Virus record (IMG/VR): IMGVR_UViG_3300028840_004648
Span: 1-64,000 of that record
From: a virus
Direction: 5' to 3' (one strand)
DNA: 64,000 nt
The notes under the pieces were generated by a model. It made no database searches. It saw only the letters and a list, made by a program, of their open reading frames with translations, and was not told the DNA's origin. The position numbers and the translations under genes are program-made. Of this stretch, positions 22,437-39,511 are shown one piece after another. Each line of letters begins with the position of its first letter. The stretch's first letter is position 1.

Positions 22437-23261
22437 ATGGGTAAATTTCATGATTCATATGATAAATTTATGGAGGCTATTGGTCTAACTTGGGGTGGCG
22501 GTATTGATAAAACACGTACTGCAACTCAAACTCCAGGTGGTTTCAGAGGTTATTACTGGAAGAAAATGTCTAGCGCTTATAGTGATGATGTAGGTAAATA
22601 TCATGGTATGGGTACTTACAACAAAGACGAAAGACAACTTAAAGGTCAACGTATTGCTTACTTTGATAAAATCAAATTTAATATTGTTGATTACGGACGT
22701 GAGGGCGGATATGCAGATGCATGGGGTCCAAACGAAGATGGAAAGTTTGTTTCTAAGAATAACGCTTCAACCGATAAACCACAAAACCGTCTTCCAAAGG
22801 CTGTTACTGGTGTAGATCAAATTATGGCTGTTGCATATCCAAGTAAATATCTTGACGCTGCTATTGAAAAATATGGTGAGCGTAAATATGGTGAACGTTT
22901 CCTTCTTGGTATACGTAATGCTATTAAAAATATTGAAGTTGGAATGCCTGGTGAAGATTATGACGCTGCTCTCGAGAAAGTCGAAGAACAACTCGGGCTC
23001 GGTGGTGAAGAAGTAGAAGAAATGGAAGATATGGACGACAACGTCGGCGAAGAAATGGACGTACAAGAATTCGAAGAAAAATCTGAATGTAAAGAAGGCA
23101 AATGCGATTGTAAAGAAGGCAAATGCACTTGTGAAAAAGCAAAAAAGATGTACGATAAAATCCAAGAAATGCGCAAACTTCGTAAAAAAGGTAAAGATGA
23201 GAAAAAAGAAGAAGAAGTAAAAGAAAAGAAAGAAGATAAAAAAGATAAAAAAGATAAATAA
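22437..23261 (+). CDS. hypothetical protein with Cys-repeat and K/E/D-rich tail
   Basis: Strong RBS aacaaggaga. Tandem 21-nt repeat encoding CKEGKCD/CKEGKCT. Terminal (KDK)n repeat. Followed by a strong terminator. Confidence 0.6.
   Translation: MGKFHDSYDKFMEAIGLTWGGGIDKTRTATQTPGGFRGYYWKKMSSAYSDDVGKYHGMGTYNKDERQLKGQRIAYFDKIKFNIVDYGREGGYADAWGPNEDGKFVSKNNASTDKPQNRLPKAVTGVDQIMAVAYPSKYLDAAIEKYGERKYGERFLLGIRNAIKNIEVGMPGEDYDAALEKVEEQLGLGGEEVEEMEDMDDNVGEEMDVQEFEEKSECKEGKCDCKEGKCTCEKAKKMYDKIQEMRKLRKKGKDEKKEEEVKEKKEDKKDKKDK
23088..23129 (+). repeat. tandem 21-nt coding repeat (2 copies)
   Basis: tgtaaagaaggcaaatgc occurs twice in tandem. Confidence 0.8.
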
Positions 23262-23287
23262 TCTCATTTTAATCTAAGTTAAATTTA

Positions 23288-23316
23288 GGGTGTGAATTTC
23301 GGTTCACACCTTTTTT
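23288..23316 (+). terminator. rho-independent terminator
   Basis: GGGTGTGAA-tttcg-GTTCACACC stem followed by TTTTTT. Confidence 0.75.
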
Positions 23317-23338
23317 AATGTTTGCTTTACATCATAAC

Positions 23339-23356
23339 TTTTCATGTTATATTATA
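23339..23356 (+). promoter_or_regulatory. promoter-like repeat copy 1 (ttttcatGTTATATTAta)
   Basis: 18-nt element repeated exactly at 23409-23426. Contains an extended -10-like TGtTATATT. Confidence 0.4.
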
Positions 23357-23408
23357 TCAAATTCATATATTTGAAAAATATTGTTAACTAGCAACTATAC
23401 ATAGTATA

Positions 23409-23426
23409 TTTTCATGTTATATTATA
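23409..23426 (+). promoter_or_regulatory. promoter-like repeat copy 2, 41 nt upstream of the PARP gene start
   Basis: Exact repeat of copy 1. Same motif and same spacing as the copy upstream of the ORF at 35730. Confidence 0.45.
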
Positions 23427-23465
23427 ATGTAGCGGAAAATTAATTAAACCCCAAGGAATTAACAC

Positions 23466-24779
23466 ATGGCTAGTGTTGTAGAGCACAGACGTTATGTCAA
23501 ATCAAATGTTGCCAAAAACAATAATAAGTTTTGGTACATTACACTCTATGAAGACAATTCTGTTATAACAGAATATGGTCGGATGGGTAATTCACCTCAA
23601 GTATCAACTAAAAACTTTCCTACTGCAGATAAAGCTCGTAAGTTTTTTGATACGAAATGTCGCCAAAAAGAAAAACCAAAGAGTAATGGTGAAATCGCAT
23701 ATAAGCGGATGGATATTATTGAAGAATCAATAACTGTTAGTTCGCCAAATGCATCTCTTAAAGAGATTGCAAAAGATCAAATTGGTACCAATTCACCAGA
23801 AACACTTAAACTTGTTGAATACTTGGTTGAGCAAAATGCGCATAATATTCTGCAAAATACCACTATGACATACGACAAGAAATCTGGTTTATTTGAAACT
23901 GCTTGCGGTCCAGTTACTCAGAAAACTATTGATGAAGCTCGTACTGTTCTTATTAAAGTCGCAGACGTTGTTGAAAAATTTACTCAACAGCGTAATTATG
24001 ATGTTTTGCGTGCATCTGCATATGAAAATCTTCTTGGTGATTACTTGATGCTTATCCCTCAAGATATTGGTCGCAAATTTGATCCAACTAGACTTTATAC
24101 TTCCTTAGAAGATATTCAAAAACAGAATGCTGTTCTTGATTCTTTGGAAGCATCAGTACAAATGATTATGGATGCTAAGGCTGACAAAGTAAAAGAAGTT
24201 GTAGCTGAAACTCCTCGCCTCTTTAATACTGATCTTAAGAAGGTTGAAGATGGCAAAATTATTGATACAATTGTTAAATACTATAAATCGACAAAACAGG
24301 GTATGCATTCTTGCAATCATCTAACGGTTAAACGAGTATTTGAAGTAGATGTACAGGCAATGACGAAGGCCTTTGAAAATAAAGGTCGCCCACTTGGAAA
24401 TGTTCAGGAACTATGGCACGGAACTCGTGTATCAAATCTCCTATCAATTCTTAAAGTTGGTCTCATCGTTCCTCCAAGTAATGCTGGTCACTGTACCGGC
24501 CGTATGTTTGGTAATGGTGTCTATTTTTCTGATCAATCCACTAAAGCATTAAATTATGCTTATGGATATTGGGGAGGAAGTCGCGACAATCGTTGCTTTA
24601 TGTTCCTCGCAGATGTAGCAATGGGTAAATCATATACTCCAACGCGTTCTGGTAGTTATCGTCCTAATGGTTATGATTCAATCTTTGCAAAAGCAGGCCA
24701 ATCTGGTGTACGAAATAATGAAATGATTGTTCCTAATGTTTATCAATGCAAACTTAAATATCTTGTTCAATTTGGATAA
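23466..24779 (+). CDS. WGR-domain poly/mono(ADP-ribose) polymerase (PARP) family protein
   Basis: N-terminal WGR domain (KFWYITLYEDNSVITEYGRMG). C-terminal PARP catalytic signature: ELWHGTR, GVYFSD, STKALNYA, FMFLADVAMG (Asp at the position of the catalytic Glu) and a PARP-like C-terminal tail. Confidence 0.85.
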   Translation: MASVVEHRRYVKSNVAKNNNKFWYITLYEDNSVITEYGRMGNSPQVSTKNFPTADKARKFFDTKCRQKEKPKSNGEIAYKRMDIIEESITVSSPNASLKEIAKDQIGTNSPETLKLVEYLVEQNAHNILQNTTMTYDKKSGLFETACGPVTQKTIDEARTVLIKVADVVEKFTQQRNYDVLRASAYENLLGDYLMLIPQDIGRKFDPTRLYTSLEDIQKQNAVLDSLEASVQMIMDAKADKVKEVVAETPRLFNTDLKKVEDGKIIDTIVKYYKSTKQGMHSCNHLTVKRVFEVDVQAMTKAFENKGRPLGNVQELWHGTRVSNLLSILKVGLIVPPSNAGHCTGRMFGNGVYFSDQSTKALNYAYGYWGGSRDNRCFMFLADVAMGKSYTPTRSGSYRPNGYDSIFAKAGQSGVRNNEMIVPNVYQCKLKYLVQFG

Positions 24780-35661: not shown

Positions 35662-35679
35662 TACTTTGTTAAATTCCAT

Positions 35680-35689
35680 GTTATATTAT
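35680..35689 (+). promoter_or_regulatory. GTTATATTAT promoter-like motif (ttccatGTTATATTATAtt)
   Basis: Same extended motif as upstream of the PARP gene, 41 nt upstream of the ATG at 35730. Confidence 0.4.
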
Positions 35690-35729
35690 ATTGAGTAACA
35701 AAAATCCATTTTTATTTAACAGGTTATTT

Positions 35730-36144: not shown

Positions 36145-36759
36145 ATGAGCGAACCATTATTTACATCAGATTTACACTTAGATCACGCTAATGTTATTCG
36201 ATATTGTAAACGACCGTGGTTACGAGATGGTGATGAAATTAAAAATGAAGAAGGTCAATTAGTTTGGGTTGATCAACATATTGCTGAAGAACGCAAAAAC
36301 GAAATGAACGAAGCATTGATTGCTAATTGGAATAAAACAGTTGGTCAAAAAGATACTGTTTATTGTCTCGGTGATATTGCTTTTGTAACTTCTGAAGATA
36401 GACTTAGAGAACTTATTGGACGTCTTAATGGTCATATCCATCTTATTCGTGGTAATCATGATAACCGTAAGATTTTCAAAAAGGCTGCTGATGTTTTTGC
36501 AAGTATCAGAGAACTTAATAAAATTACTTGGGATAAACAAAAGATTATTCTATGTCATTATTCAATGAGAGTTTGGGATTGTTCTCATCGTGGATCTTGG
36601 CATTTATATGGTCACTCTCATGGACTTCTACCTGGTCATGGAAAATCTTTTGATGTAGGTGTTGATGCATGGGATTATAAACCAGTTACTTTTTCTCAAG
36701 TTCGTCAAAAAATGGATTCATTAGATATTCAATTTGATCATGAAGGAAGAATTCGATAA
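36145..36759 (+). CDS. calcineurin-like metallophosphoesterase
   Basis: SDLHLDH, GDIAF, IRGNHD and GHSH motifs. Confidence 0.7.
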   Translation: MSEPLFTSDLHLDHANVIRYCKRPWLRDGDEIKNEEGQLVWVDQHIAEERKNEMNEALIANWNKTVGQKDTVYCLGDIAFVTSEDRLRELIGRLNGHIHLIRGNHDNRKIFKKAADVFASIRELNKITWDKQKIILCHYSMRVWDCSHRGSWHLYGHSHGLLPGHGKSFDVGVDAWDYKPVTFSQVRQKMDSLDIQFDHEGRIR

Positions 36760-36799: not shown

Positions 36800-37402
36800 A
36801 TGAAAATCCGACGTATAAATCTTTTGGCAGGTCCTGGAGTTGGTAAAACAAATTCAACCGCAACAATTTTTGCTAAGCTTGATAGACTTGGTCTTAATAT
36901 TGAACAAGTTGATGAACATGTTAAATCATGGGCTTATGAAGGAAAACAAATTACTAAATATGATCAGTTGTATCTATTTAGTAAACAAATTAGGAAAGAA
37001 ACAATCTTTCTTAATAATGGAGCCAATATGATTATTACAGATAGTTCGCCATTATTAGCTGTTGCATATAGTATTAAGTACGGTGCCAACTTCCAAAAAG
37101 AATTAATCAACCTTTATAAGTCATATGAAGCTGATTTTCCAAGTATTGATATTTATCTTGGAAGACCTGATGGCGAATATGCTGAAAGTGGCCGTTATGA
37201 AAGTAAAGAAGAAGCACAGAAGATGGATAGTTTAATTAAGGATATCTATTTTGATATGCTTAAGAAAAGTTCATTAAATTATATTAATGATGGCCATAAT
37301 ATTTGTGCAACGATCGCGTTAATTAAATTTAAAATGGGATTGGAAATGAATGAAAAAGATAAGCTTGGATTAAAGCAAGCAGAAATAATGGAAAGAAATT
37401 AA
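36800..37402 (+). CDS. P-loop NTPase, nucleoside/nucleotide-kinase-like
   Basis: Walker A LLAGPGVGKTN at the N-terminus. Kinase-like size. Confidence 0.4.
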   Translation: MKIRRINLLAGPGVGKTNSTATIFAKLDRLGLNIEQVDEHVKSWAYEGKQITKYDQLYLFSKQIRKETIFLNNGANMIITDSSPLLAVAYSIKYGANFQKELINLYKSYEADFPSIDIYLGRPDGEYAESGRYESKEEAQKMDSLIKDIYFDMLKKSSLNYINDGHNICATIALIKFKMGLEMNEKDKLGLKQAEIMERN

Positions 37403-38482: not shown

Positions 38483-38931
38483 TGCTTGTAAATTTAAGAA
38501 TAGGTGATAGTCATCGAGATGGACATGGTAAATATGATGATCAATATTATGAAGTTAATTGTGAAAATCAACGTGAATTATTAGAAGCGTATTCTGAAGG
38601 TGTTAAAATCTGTGGAGTTAATCTTCAAGAAGATTGTGCATCAGAATATGAAGATATCAGTATTACTATTGGTGATTTTAAGAAGCTTTATAAACATGGT
38701 ATATTAAACGACGATGATCTTAAATATGCAATGGAAGAATATGAAGATGATATTGATGTATCATTTGAAGAACTTGAAGATACAAAAAAATTCGAATGTT
38801 TTTTCTGTGAAATGGATTTTGATATACTTTGGTTAGAAATAGCTAAACTTGGAAAACCAGATTTAAAGTATAATAAGACAAGCAACAAAGTTCCACGAAT
38901 TGATATTGGTGGATATGGATTATATTGGTAG
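38482..38931 (+). CDS. hypothetical acidic protein
   Basis: Coupled ORF. Confidence 0.4.
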   Translation: MLVNLRIGDSHRDGHGKYDDQYYEVNCENQRELLEAYSEGVKICGVNLQEDCASEYEDISITIGDFKKLYKHGILNDDDLKYAMEEYEDDIDVSFEELEDTKKFECFFCEMDFDILWLEIAKLGKPDLKYNKTSNKVPRIDIGGYGLYW

Positions 38932-38938
38932 AAAAATT

Positions 38939-39511
38939 ATGAAAATAGCAGTAATTCCAGGTTCTTTTAAACCACCACATATCGGTCATTATATGATGAT
39001 TGAAAAGTATTCAAAAGCGGTTGATAAAGTTTATGTTATGATTTCTGCTCCTGGTCCAACATCCAAGAGTTTAAGAACAATAAATAACAAACCAATTGAT
39101 CCTCAAATTGCGCTTACGTTACTTGATATTTATTGTCAACATCTACCAAATGTTTGGATTAGTATTTCTCAAGCTCCATCTCCGGTTAAAGGTGCATATG
39201 ATTTTATTGAAACTTTAAAAGATTGTGATGTAATTGTTGGTGGTTCAAACAAAGATGGTAAATTAGATAGACGTTGGTCTGGCATTAAAAAATATATGGA
39301 AGAACATAATTCAAGTATTAACATTATTGATGATATTACGTTTGATGCATCTCCACTTCCAATATCCGCATCCGATTTTAGAAAAGATTTACAATATCGA
39401 AGATTGGAAAAGTTTAATAGTTATATTCCAACACATGTAAATGGACCAATTAAAGAAGAAGTATTTCAGTTGCTTGGTGAGTTATCAAGTGAACAAACTG
39501 AGTGGCATTAA
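38939..39511 (+). CDS. HxGH-motif nucleotidyltransferase (NMN/NaMN adenylyltransferase-like)
   Basis: IAVIPGSFKPPHIGH matches the (H/T)xGH motif of the cytidylyltransferase / NMNAT superfamily. Confidence 0.5.
   Translation: MKIAVIPGSFKPPHIGHYMMIEKYSKAVDKVYVMISAPGPTSKSLRTINNKPIDPQIALTLLDIYCQHLPNVWISISQAPSPVKGAYDFIETLKDCDVIVGGSNKDGKLDRRWSGIKKYMEEHNSSINIIDDITFDASPLPISASDFRKDLQYRRLEKFNSYIPTHVNGPIKEEVFQLLGELSSEQTEWH

Follow-up and report, generated by a model that had tools for sequence, protein, structure and literature searches.

The 64,000-nucleotide stretch of viral DNA analysed here (the window) belongs to a jumbo phage with a genome of roughly 207 kb. A gene for a PARP-type ADP-ribosyltransferase lies in its replication/recombination region, and the window also codes for DnaB, a RecA-like protein, a clamp loader, a sigma factor and a DEDDh exonuclease. 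The PARP gene is followed on the same strand by a gene that encodes a major vault protein (MVP) homolog, and by a gene that recurs next to PARP genes in other genomes, called the partner below. The coordinates of these genes, of the protein domains and of the residues and signals discussed are collected in Table 1.

Table 1 Features of the PARP locus, in window coordinates
Feature	Position	Strand	Basis
Terminator-like hairpin	23287..23312	+	Stem of 11 bp with 4 G-C pairs, T-run after
Promoter-like element 1	23326..23356	+	TTTACA, 16 nt, TATATT with TG extension
Promoter-like element 2	23396..23426	+	Second exact 18-mer copy, 23409-23426
AAGGA ribosome-binding site (predicted)	23453..23457	+	8 nt 5' of the PARP ATG, read from the sequence
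PARP coding sequence, 437 aa + stop	23466..24779	+	ORF open for 437 codons, Pfam, PHROG, PDB, model
WGR domain, residues 12-70	23499..23675	+	Pfam PF05406, 7.7e-13
Helical regulatory domain (HD/PARP_reg), residues about 98-241	23757..24188	+	Pfam PF02877, model helices, Foldseek
ART (PARP catalytic) domain, residues 268-437	24267..24776	+	Pfam PF00644, 2.3e-30
H318 codon (PARP1 H862), triad His	24417..24419	+	Alignment; 77/77 invariant
Y353 codon (PARP1 Y896), triad Tyr	24522..24524	+	Alignment; 77/77 invariant
D383 codon (PARP1 E923), non-catalytic	24612..24614	+	Alignment; variable column
E419 codon (PARP1 E988), catalytic Glu in NNEMIV	24720..24722	+	Alignment; 77/77 invariant
MVP homolog, 821 aa, between PARP and partner	26157..28622	+	Pfam MVP_shoulder 4.9e-27, Vault_3 1.9e-10
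Conserved PARP-partner gene, 215 aa	29145..29792	+	Cluster-1 HMM, 5.1e-21

The PARP gene is predicted to have its own terminator and twin promoters. The terminator-like hairpin, which may mark the end of the upstream transcription unit, has the longest stem of nine such sites in the region, where 3.2 are expected. The first promoter-like element includes the 18-mer TTTTCATGTTATATTATA (23339-23356), which is repeated in the second. With up to three mismatches, this 18-mer matches the window six times against 0.95 expected, and six matches were reached in 0 of 100 shuffles.

The 437-residue protein is a genuine PARP-type ADP-ribosyltransferase made of three domains, WGR, HD and ART. All three were matched by Pfam, the regulatory domain at 6.2e-6 over residues 113-237 with 26.8 bits, which is exactly the Pfam gathering cut-off. 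The WGR domain, already recognised in the original prediction from the motif KFWYITLYEDNSVITEYGRMG (residues 21-41), carries NNNKFW and a [Y/W]GR motif, Y37-G38-R39. Conservation counts were taken over 77 viral homologs: G38 and R39 are each invariant, while position 37 is Y in 42, W in 26, N in 8 and F in 1. In the AF2 model (pLDDT 89), the WGR domain consists of strands between residues 4 and 50 and a helix at 54-69, and the HD helices span 98-241. The whole chain is matched by Foldseek to the WGR-HD-ART portion of PARP1/2, the top matches being PARP1 and PARP2 on DNA breaks (about 1e-25, TM up to 0.68). Sequence searches agree with the fold. The PARP1 catalytic domain in the PDB matches the ART domain at about 1e-21 with the single sequence and 1e-37 with a profile, a profile of the family hits the WGR-to-CAT chains of PARP2 and PARP1 with E-values of 1e-39 to 1e-41, and PHROG 23333 matches the full length at 2.9e-59. 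No NCBIfam family was found to match the PARP or the MVP homolog. The protein stays within the PARP/ARTD clade. The R-S-E clade of T4 Alt/ModA/ModB, with its ARTC-type fold, was rejected, as every significant sequence or fold match is an H-Y-E PARP, and the earlier placement outside the clade of the T4 enzymes is borne out (for the clade definitions, see PMC5966428 and PMC9503650).

As for the active site, the alignment with PARP1, whose triad includes E988 (PMC8150716), assigns the phage protein the canonical triad H318-Y353-E419. The PARP1 segment YNEYIVY, which holds E988, aligns with NNEMIVP, which holds E419, and this residue opens beta-strand 419-422 in the AF2 model. Under a single numbering scheme, H318, G319, Y353, K360, Y364 and E419 correspond to H862, G863, Y896, K903, Y907 and E988, and D383 corresponds to E923; the equivalent of N987 is conserved as well. 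The triad is spaced H-35-Y-66-E, and the chain ends 18 residues past E419. The original prediction had described a WGR-domain PARP whose triad is the variant H-Y-D, D383 standing at the place of the catalytic Glu, a change that may alter mono- versus poly-ADP-ribosylation. All the motifs on which it was built are present (ELWHGT 315-320, GVYFSD 351-356, STKALNYA 358-365, FMFLADVAMG 378-387 and the C-terminal tail IVPNVYQCKLKYLVQF at 421-436, with E419 two residues before it), and the WGR domain, the PARP family, the His and the Tyr stand. The Asp as catalytic residue does not. It does align with a PARP1 Glu, that of LLLGEVALG, but this Glu is E923, and the H-Y-D claim arose from misalignment, E923 being taken for the catalytic residue. 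The prediction itself had named a realignment moving the Asp off the catalytic position as evidence against it, and such a realignment is what was obtained. Moreover, the D383 column is variable (D 46, N 13, Q 4, K 4, P 3, E 2, S 2, T 2, R 1), and the Glu of the published CdPARP triad (H322/Y359/E428) sits at the same C-terminal position as E419. Genuine H-Y-D ADP-ribosyltransferases such as Arr are known, and one viral PARP has been reported with Asp for Glu; nevertheless, a variant-triad class is refuted here by alignment and conservation, and this reading deserves almost no credence. There is therefore no new ART chemistry to infer from the gene, and the speculation about mono- versus poly-ADP-ribosylation falls together with the H-Y-D triad.

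In the nicotinamide site, G319 and Y364 are conserved. The equivalent of S904 is A361 (S in 52 and A in 25 of the homologs), in which the phage protein differs from HaPARP and CdPARP. At the position of PARP1 Y986, which governs chain length and branching (PMC7544232), the phage protein has N417, and N is found in 76/77 homologs. The stretch from the triad Tyr to the Glu counts 66 residues against 92 in PARP1, about 26 fewer. An H-Y-E triad is in itself no guarantee of polymer synthesis.

The gene is a further member of a large, already annotated family of phage and bacterial PARPs, which numbers more than 2,000 relatives and takes in at least 75 viral contigs and more than 90 bacterial species. 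When the gene was compared by megablast with 50,697 phage records, nothing matched; relatives in these records were found at the protein level only, at 38% identity or less. Cultured phages with homologs include Xanthomonas phages Xoo-sp13 and XacN1, Stenotrophomonas phages CM1/RAS14 and Klebsiella phages 05F01/FBKp34/KP13-16 (PHROG 23333). Their proteins are covered to 96-99% at only 32-38% identity and are already annotated as "poly (ADP-ribose) polymerase" or "ADP-ribosylation"; by annotation, their loci hold neither an MVP gene nor a gene annotated as the partner. Among bacterial enzymes, HaPARP (Herpetosiphon aurantiacus, Haur_4763) and CdPARP (Clostridioides difficile CD160) make poly(ADP-ribose) in vitro with DNA. 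They share with the phage protein the WGR-PARP_reg-PARP_cat layout (47-52 kDa versus 437 aa), a first WGR-motif position that is Y, W or F and not strictly W, and, in CdPARP, an H-Y-E triad with the Glu near the C-terminus. In contrast to these bacteria, which have a functional PARG, none was found near the phage gene. Indeed, no PARG, macrodomain or ARH eraser (including ARH3) was found in the 64-kb window as far as its ORFs carry an annotation, which many do not, and a macrodomain profile built from related loci gave no match in the window. The best sequence and structure matches are the WGR-HD-ART portions of human PARP2 and PARP1, to which all three domains align at about 20-23% identity. 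Compared to them, the phage protein is without zinc fingers, BRCT and the N-terminal tail, and it has no known HPF1-type partner; an unrelated conserved gene of about 215 codons is found instead.

The probable explanation is a phage PARP of the PARP1-3/bacterial type with the triad H318-Y353-E419, an enzyme that would carry out break-linked ADP-ribosylation. Architecture, fold, triad, the conserved part of the NAD+ site and family membership were established directly, and the action of the enzyme is deduced by homology to PARP1/2, HaPARP and CdPARP. By this analogy, the WGR domain would bind a break or end of DNA (or RNA), binding would lift the autoinhibition by the HD, and the ART domain would spend host NAD+ on the transfer of ADP-ribose, probably as chains. 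The acceptors may be the PARP itself, nearby proteins and nucleic-acid ends. In the literature searched, no work on the function of a phage PARP was found. Weighing against this explanation are N417, A361, the shorter Tyr-Glu stretch, the borderline PARP_reg match and the missing eraser in the window.

The partner family is found on the same strand 3' of the PARP at 28 of 79 viral loci (within 1 kb at 22 of them) and at 13 of 80 bacterial loci, and an ortholog is present in locus L247. Usually, the partner directly follows the PARP, while the MVP homolog intervenes in the studied phage and a NADAR gene fills the PARP-partner slot in the closest relative. In the partner protein, an N-terminal domain of about 90 aa is joined by a variable linker to an AbrB/MazE-like segment at the C-terminus, a putative AbrB-like DNA-binding domain. 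The similarity is weak (E 0.4-0.95 in the PDB; Pfam MazE 0.0045 for one member). Apart from the identical sequence, a word-indexed search with the partner returned a single relative, and an AF2 model from two sequences reached a pLDDT of 39. Two GAF/PAS histidine kinases contain stretches that match the N-terminal domain; these matches were set aside as probably spurious. Other neighbour families at the 79 viral loci are DNA ligases (13), Rnl1-type RNA ligases (10) and TARG1/SCO6735-type macrodomains (9); an apparent family at 26 loci proved to be merely the antisense shadow ORF of the PARP. The coupling of the PARP to the partner and, in phage subsets, to ligases and a TARG1-like macrodomain suggests break signalling or processing during infection.

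The same neighbours bear on the product of the enzyme. Instead of protein-linked polymers, it might make mono-ADP-ribose modifications or cap DNA/RNA termini with ADP-ribose, a reaction that PARP3 performs and of which PARP1/2 are capable. Modified nucleic-acid ends would in that case be the substrates of ligases, macrodomain and NADAR. PARP1-3 are described as modifying terminal phosphates of DNA breaks (PMC8150716; PMC7726343). The enrichment of these genes at viral PARP loci, NADAR in the locus of the closest relative, the change of Y986 to N417 and the shortened region before the catalytic Glu are all consistent with such a product. However, CdPARP is likewise short (69 residues from Tyr to Glu) and yet makes a polymer that is detected by anti-PAR antibody and removed by PARG. 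Furthermore, no ligase, macrodomain or NADAR gene of the kinds present at related loci was found in the 64-kb window. Mono-ADP-ribosylation or end capping is regarded as possible but rather unlikely.

A role mainly in host takeover or counter-defence, through the use of host NAD+ or the modification of host proteins and not through the sensing of phage breaks, seems unlikely. Phage ADP-ribosyltransferases of other clades (T4 Alt/Mod) are known for such a role, the PARP gene has its dedicated twin promoter, and the stretch 13-15 kb 3' of it holds a weak NMNAT-like gene together with an AAA_28 kinase. On the other hand, the retained WGR and autoinhibitory HD would favour a regulated, nucleic-acid-dependent activity. 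In PADLOC, PARP, MVP homolog and partner were all without a match, as were the small ORFs lying between them, a result that leaves a known defence cassette unsupported. Nor is an assignment of genes near the PARP to NAD+ salvage secure, the AAA_28 and cytidylyltransferase-like genes matching NMNAT/NadR models far under the curated cut-offs.

The genomic context of the PARP is more interesting than its active site. The gene belongs, in well-preserved form, to a widespread and functionally uncharacterised group, WGR-HD-ART PARPs being present in many jumbo phages. The conserved partner, the linkage to DNA/RNA ligases, TARG1-like macrodomain and NADAR, and the MVP homolog in an accessory slot provide handles on its function. 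They suggest that phage PARPs work at nucleic-acid breaks or ends inside small ADP-ribosylation islands, for which the cultured phages with homologs are possible test systems.

The gene between PARP and partner is, judged from its sequence, an MVP homolog with a vault repeat, an SPFH-like shoulder and a C-terminal helical region. Its matches include the human and rat MVP chains, at about 1e-21; within human MVP the alignment covers residues 477-796 and 296-414, and the lengths are comparable (821 vs 893 aa). It is improbable that the PARP and the MVP homolog act jointly and so mirror in a virus the eukaryotic pairing of vault and PARP4, with the MVP homolog serving as a shell, as an NAD+/ADP-ribose-binding scaffold or as a PARP substrate. 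The idea draws on the position of the gene, 1.4 kb 3' of the PARP, on the same strand and within an otherwise tight PARP-partner pair, and on NADAR, also ADP-ribose-linked, in the same slot of the closest relative. In human MVP, NAD+/ADP-ribose is bound by the shoulder, and the phage protein keeps two basic residues of the keyhole loop (R504 as K492 and K506 as K494), but several residues of the NAD+ pocket are lost (R507 to N495, H509 to Y498, R511 to E500, W545 to V534). PARP4 has an H-Y-E ART after a helical domain, and its catalytic fragment matches residues 268-436 as one stretch. However, the phage PARP, in which WGR, PARP_reg and PARP are the only Pfam domains and which ends shortly after the catalytic Glu, is without the BRCT, VIT, vWA and MVP-binding MINT regions, while its WGR domain is missing from PARP4 (PMC4245714, PMC12280208).

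The linkage of PARP and MVP is rare. No MVP gene lies within 10 kb of the PARP at the 77 other PARP loci, and a divergent, full-length WGR-PARP lies within 10 kb at 2 of 80 other viral MVP loci; a conserved PARP-MVP module was rejected on these counts. The bacterial and phage MVP loci examined are without a PARP, and one phage of 395 kb carries a PARP and an MVP gene at a distance of 230 kb. The phage MVP P0214 has a weak N-terminal WGR-like segment that could speak for a link, but an MVP-WGR fusion was rejected as too weak (BLASTP E = 0.012 over 34 residues, Pfam match marked "weak"). That the PARP, the inserted MVP homolog and the partner of about 215 aa form one phage ADP-ribosylation module is very improbable. 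If they did, a vault-like shell or an NAD+/ADP-ribose scaffold would work with a break-sensing PARP, the module would correspond in viruses to the unexplained association of vaults with PARP4 in eukaryotes (or be its evolutionary source), and the partner would be a cofactor or substrate of the PARP in a role analogous to HPF1. As for the wider MVP family, a scan of viral contigs with the single sequence found nothing and an alignment query was needed; relatives of the homolog number more than 6,000.

The phage PARP is a genuine but ordinary protein, belonging to a known and already annotated family of phage and bacterial PARPs. Its ORF of 437 codons plus stop encodes a WGR, a regulatory (HD) and a catalytic (ART) domain (see table), and all peptide motifs quoted in the original prediction were found in the translation. 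End-to-end, it matched PHROG 23333 ('polymerase', 2.9e-59). An AlphaFold2 model with 120 homologs as input reached a mean pLDDT of 89 and a pTM of 0.73, and a Foldseek search of the PDB ranked human PARP1 and PARP2 WGR-HD-ART modules on DNA breaks highest (whole chain, TM up to 0.68; E about 1e-25). These results establish architecture, fold and family membership; the proposed WGR-domain PARP-family ADP-ribosyltransferase, of a clade other than T4 Alt/Mod, was correct.

More than 2,200 relatives were retrieved at E ≤ 1e-3. Among the matches listed, the best share the phage protein's domains at a length of about 430 aa, and the name 'poly [ADP-ribose] polymerase' is frequent. Full-length relatives occur on at least 75 IMG/VR contigs (often 200-550 kb long) and in genomes of >90 bacterial species (Armatimonadota, Acidobacteriota, Cyanobacteria, Planctomycetota, Pseudomonas megaplasmids). 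PARP-annotated homologs with 32-38% identity are carried by cultured phages, i.e., Xanthomonas phages Xoo-sp13 and XacN1, Stenotrophomonas phage CM1/RAS14 and three Klebsiella phages. An identical protein is encoded on a 206,884-bp metagenomic contig (ENA ERZ27256798). The PARP/PART family was ranked among the most frequent viral ARTs (Iyer et al. 2022), and no functional study of any phage PARP was found in the literature searched. The interest lies in this uncharacterised biology and in the local gene company, namely a partner gene and a major vault protein (MVP) homolog in a putative accessory slot. It does not rest on any variant catalytic residue.

The original prediction had described a variant H-Y-D triad, taking D383 of FMFLADVAMG as catalytic. 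This was wrong, as the Glu of LLLGEVALG, assumed to be catalytic in PARP1-3, is PARP1 E923. In HMMER alignments, FMFLADVAMG fell on the LLLGEVALG segment of PARP1, and query residues 407-435 (…VRNNEMIVPNVYQCKLKYLVQ) aligned with PARP1 …LLYNEYIVYDVAQVNLKYLLK. The family profile matched PARP1 in a single stretch (profile positions 14-429, about 1e-39). By script, the printed alignment was converted into a residue map onto chain 1a26_A (361 residues), which we take to be PARP1 residues 654-1014, using one numbering offset. The offset is internally validated, since the conserved His and Tyr (H318 and Y353) fall exactly on H862 and Y896; E419 falls on E988, and G319, K360, Y364 and N418 fall on G863, K903, Y907 and N987. 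Realignment, named beforehand as a refuting test, puts D383 on E923. The PARP1 triad is H862/Y896/E988 (PMC8150716), and that of CdPARP from Clostridioides difficile CD160, H322/Y359/E428 (PMC5966428), is spaced about as in the phage protein. Conservation among 77 sequences (the window PARP and 76 homologs from viral contigs) settles the question: H318, Y353 and E419 are each invariant (77/77), whereas the D383 column is variable (D46 N13 Q4 K4 P3 E2 S2 T2 R1). The triad is therefore the canonical H-Y-E. A true H-Y-D triad would still have precedent, since a viral PARP with Asp replacing Glu has already been mentioned (Perina et al. 2014).

As read from the alignments, the triad is intact and the NAD+ site largely so, with G319 and Y364 conserved. 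Several differences from PARP1 were identified. Y986, a PARP1 residue that controls the length and branching of chains (PMC7544232), is replaced by N417 (Asn in 76/77), and S904 by Ala (S 52 and A 25 across the family). The 'WGR' motif opens with Tyr (Y37), which is also reported for most bacterial PARPs. The segment from the triad Tyr to the Glu comprises 66 residues, compared with 92 in PARP1. This is no argument against polymer synthesis, since the segment is also short in CdPARP (69), yet CdPARP makes PAR, which is detected by anti-PAR antibody and removed by PARG (PMC5966428). By homology to PARP1/2, CdPARP and HaPARP (Herpetosiphon aurantiacus), the WGR domain would bind a nucleic-acid break or end, binding would release HD autoinhibition, and the ART domain would then ADP-ribosylate itself and nearby targets from NAD+. 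No eraser gene was found in the 64-kb window.

Across 79 viral loci, every ORF lying up to 10 kb on either side of PARP was clustered. The commonest neighbour is an unannotated protein of ~220 aa, encoded downstream on the same strand in 28/79 loci and starting <1 kb from PARP in 22 of those 28; it also lies 3' of PARP in 13/80 bacterial loci. Its N-terminal domain is conserved and is joined by a variable linker to a C-terminal segment carrying a 'D.RGR..IP' motif. This segment gave weak, repeated matches to swapped-hairpin DNA-binding domains of the AbrB/MazE type (PDB E 0.4-0.95; for one member, Pfam MazE 0.0045). The partner could be a cofactor, substrate or DNA-binding partner of PARP. Moreover, ligases and a macrodomain recur within a few kb of phage PARPs: ATP-dependent DNA ligase (13/79; PF01068 1.8e-14), T4 Rnl1-type RNA ligase (10/79; PF09511 8e-25) and a TARG1/SCO6735-type macrodomain (9/79; PDB 5e3b 2.6e-39, TARG1/OARD1 about 5e-14). 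A dNMP kinase was found in 10/79 loci. Judged by its annotations, the ligase and macrodomain company is a putative break-repair and ADP-ribose-removal neighbourhood, which is absent from the PARP reviews examined. In the window, profile searches detected 0/4 of these families.

The closest relative, L247 (59% identity), lies on a T4-like contig with Gp23 (JAPOGV010000839.1). Both loci share the order PARP, small ORFs, a variable gene, partner (32% identity), a 336/347-aa protein (50%) and PD-(D/E)XK (56%). In L247 the variable position, directly upstream of the partner, is taken by a NADAR-domain gene; in the window it is taken by the MVP homolog. This suggests that the PARP-partner interval accepts variable accessory genes related to ADP-ribose. 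The 336-aa protein itself matched weakly to the DnaG-like primase region of a PADLOC DRT model (6.4e-7), with no Pfam match. Since relatives of the gene occur alongside ligases, a macrodomain and NADAR, nucleic-acid-end chemistry is a serious alternative to protein ADP-ribosylation by the phage PARP.

The MVP homolog is full-length (MVP_shoulder 4.9e-27, Vault_3 1.9e-10; human MVP 5.5e-22) and lies 1.4 kb downstream of PARP. Its family is large: >6,000 relatives were retrieved, many of them assigned to Myxococcota, and viral contigs contain 260 stretches that match. A 2023 preprint described phage MVPs and makes no mention of a phage PARP. PARP4 is a component of eukaryotic vaults, and NAD+/ADP-ribose is bound by the MVP shoulder, which prompted a check of the linkage. 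No MVP was found within 10 kb of PARP at the 77 other PARP loci, and a full-length but divergent WGR-PARP lies within the same distance at 2/80 viral MVP loci (L093, L163). In one 395-kb phage, the two genes are 230 kb apart. PARP was not found at the other three MVP loci whose flanks extend at least 8 kb. The human NAD+-pocket residues R504 and K506 have conserved counterparts in K492 and K494, within the family-invariant STGKPK; R507, H509, R511, D521 and W545 are not conserved. The phage PARP has 0/4 of the PARP4 domains BRCT, VIT, vWA and MINT. The adjacency is thus suggestive but not a conserved module, and functional coupling of the two proteins seems very unlikely. On a phage-like 42-kb contig, another MVP homolog (P0214, 1,095 aa) carries an N-terminal extension with a WGR match rated 'weak' by Pfam (BLASTP E = 0.012 to the phage PARP's WGR core). 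If real, it would be a possible direct MVP-WGR fusion.

Upstream of PARP, a 205-bp gap contains a hairpin, two promoter-like elements and a ribosome-binding site, from which PARP appears to head its own transcription unit. The 18-mer TTTTCATGTTATATTATA and variants gave 6 window matches against 0.95 expected, also upstream of other ORFs; the two exact copies before PARP are in tandem. It is probably a phage promoter class.

Coordinates of features in the window and at related loci
Feature	Position	Strand	Remarks
PARP ORF	23466-24779	+	
WGR	residues 12-70		Pfam 7.7e-13
PARP regulatory domain	residues 113-237		Pfam 6.2e-6, score equal to gathering score
PARP catalytic domain	residues 268-391		Pfam 2.3e-30
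Terminator-like hairpin	23287-23312		11-bp stem
Two promoter-like elements	between hairpin and PARP		each with exact TTTTCATGTTATATTATA copy (23339, 23409)
AAGGA ribosome-binding site	8 nt before PARP ATG		
TTTTCATGTTATATTATA or close variants	23339-23356, 23409-23426, 35673-35690	+	
TTTTCATGTTATATTATA or close variants	62415-62432, 60619-60636	-	
274-aa protein	22437-23261	+	directly upstream of PARP
Antisense ORF	22767-23267		
MVP homolog	26157-28622	+	821 aa
Partner	29145-29792	+	215 aa, HMM E = 5.1e-21
336-aa protein	30153-31163	+	downstream of partner
cREC_REC protein	2306-2680	+	1.1e-15
Metallophosphoesterases	4841-5665, 36145-36759	+	
AAA_28 P-loop kinase	36800-37402	+	2.8e-8
Cytidylyltransferase-like	38900-39511	+	
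TnsA-like protein	54164-54637		
Orientation flip	about 54640-54780	+ to -	
NADAR gene	L247 12629-13099		
P0214	L083 8001-11288		
DNA ligase loci	L014, L017, L069-L073		
RNA ligase loci	L026, L031, L034, L066		
Macrodomain loci	L021, L029, L061		
MVP loci, PARP not found	L085, L086, L083/L084		bacterial chromosome; 507-kb phage-like contig; contig with possible MVP-WGR fusion

The 274-aa protein matches no family; it contains a Cys-rich repeat (CKEGKCDCKEGKCTCEK), and its tail is extremely rich in Lys and Glu. The long antisense ORF probably arises as an artefact of low complexity.

The window (32% GC) is a jumbo-phage replication and auxiliary region, with dense coding on a single strand for roughly the first 54 kb. 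Among its products are DnaB, a RecA-like protein, a gp44-like clamp loader, PhoH-PIN, a sigma factor, a DEDDh exonuclease, HNH, a PD-(D/E)XK nuclease and sugar/nucleotide enzymes; no tRNAs were found. Two transcription blocks meet convergently at the orientation flip; GC skew likewise reverses its sign at about 54 kb. The nearby TnsA-like protein has a Tn7 TnsA-like endonuclease N-terminal domain. Judging from their profile matches, the P-loop kinase and the cytidylyltransferase-like protein (best PHROG nicotinamide-nucleotide adenylyltransferase, 2.1e-9; NCBIfam scores far below cut-offs) could be a divergent NAD+ salvage pair complementing the NAD+-consuming PARP. Furthermore, RNA-end or cyclic-nucleotide processing in this genome region is hinted at by the protein with a cREC_REC domain ('cyclic-phosphate processing receiver') and by two metallophosphoesterases of the calcineurin-like type (one is phrog_547, 5e-52; weak resemblance to a 2',3'-cyclic nucleotide phosphodiesterase).
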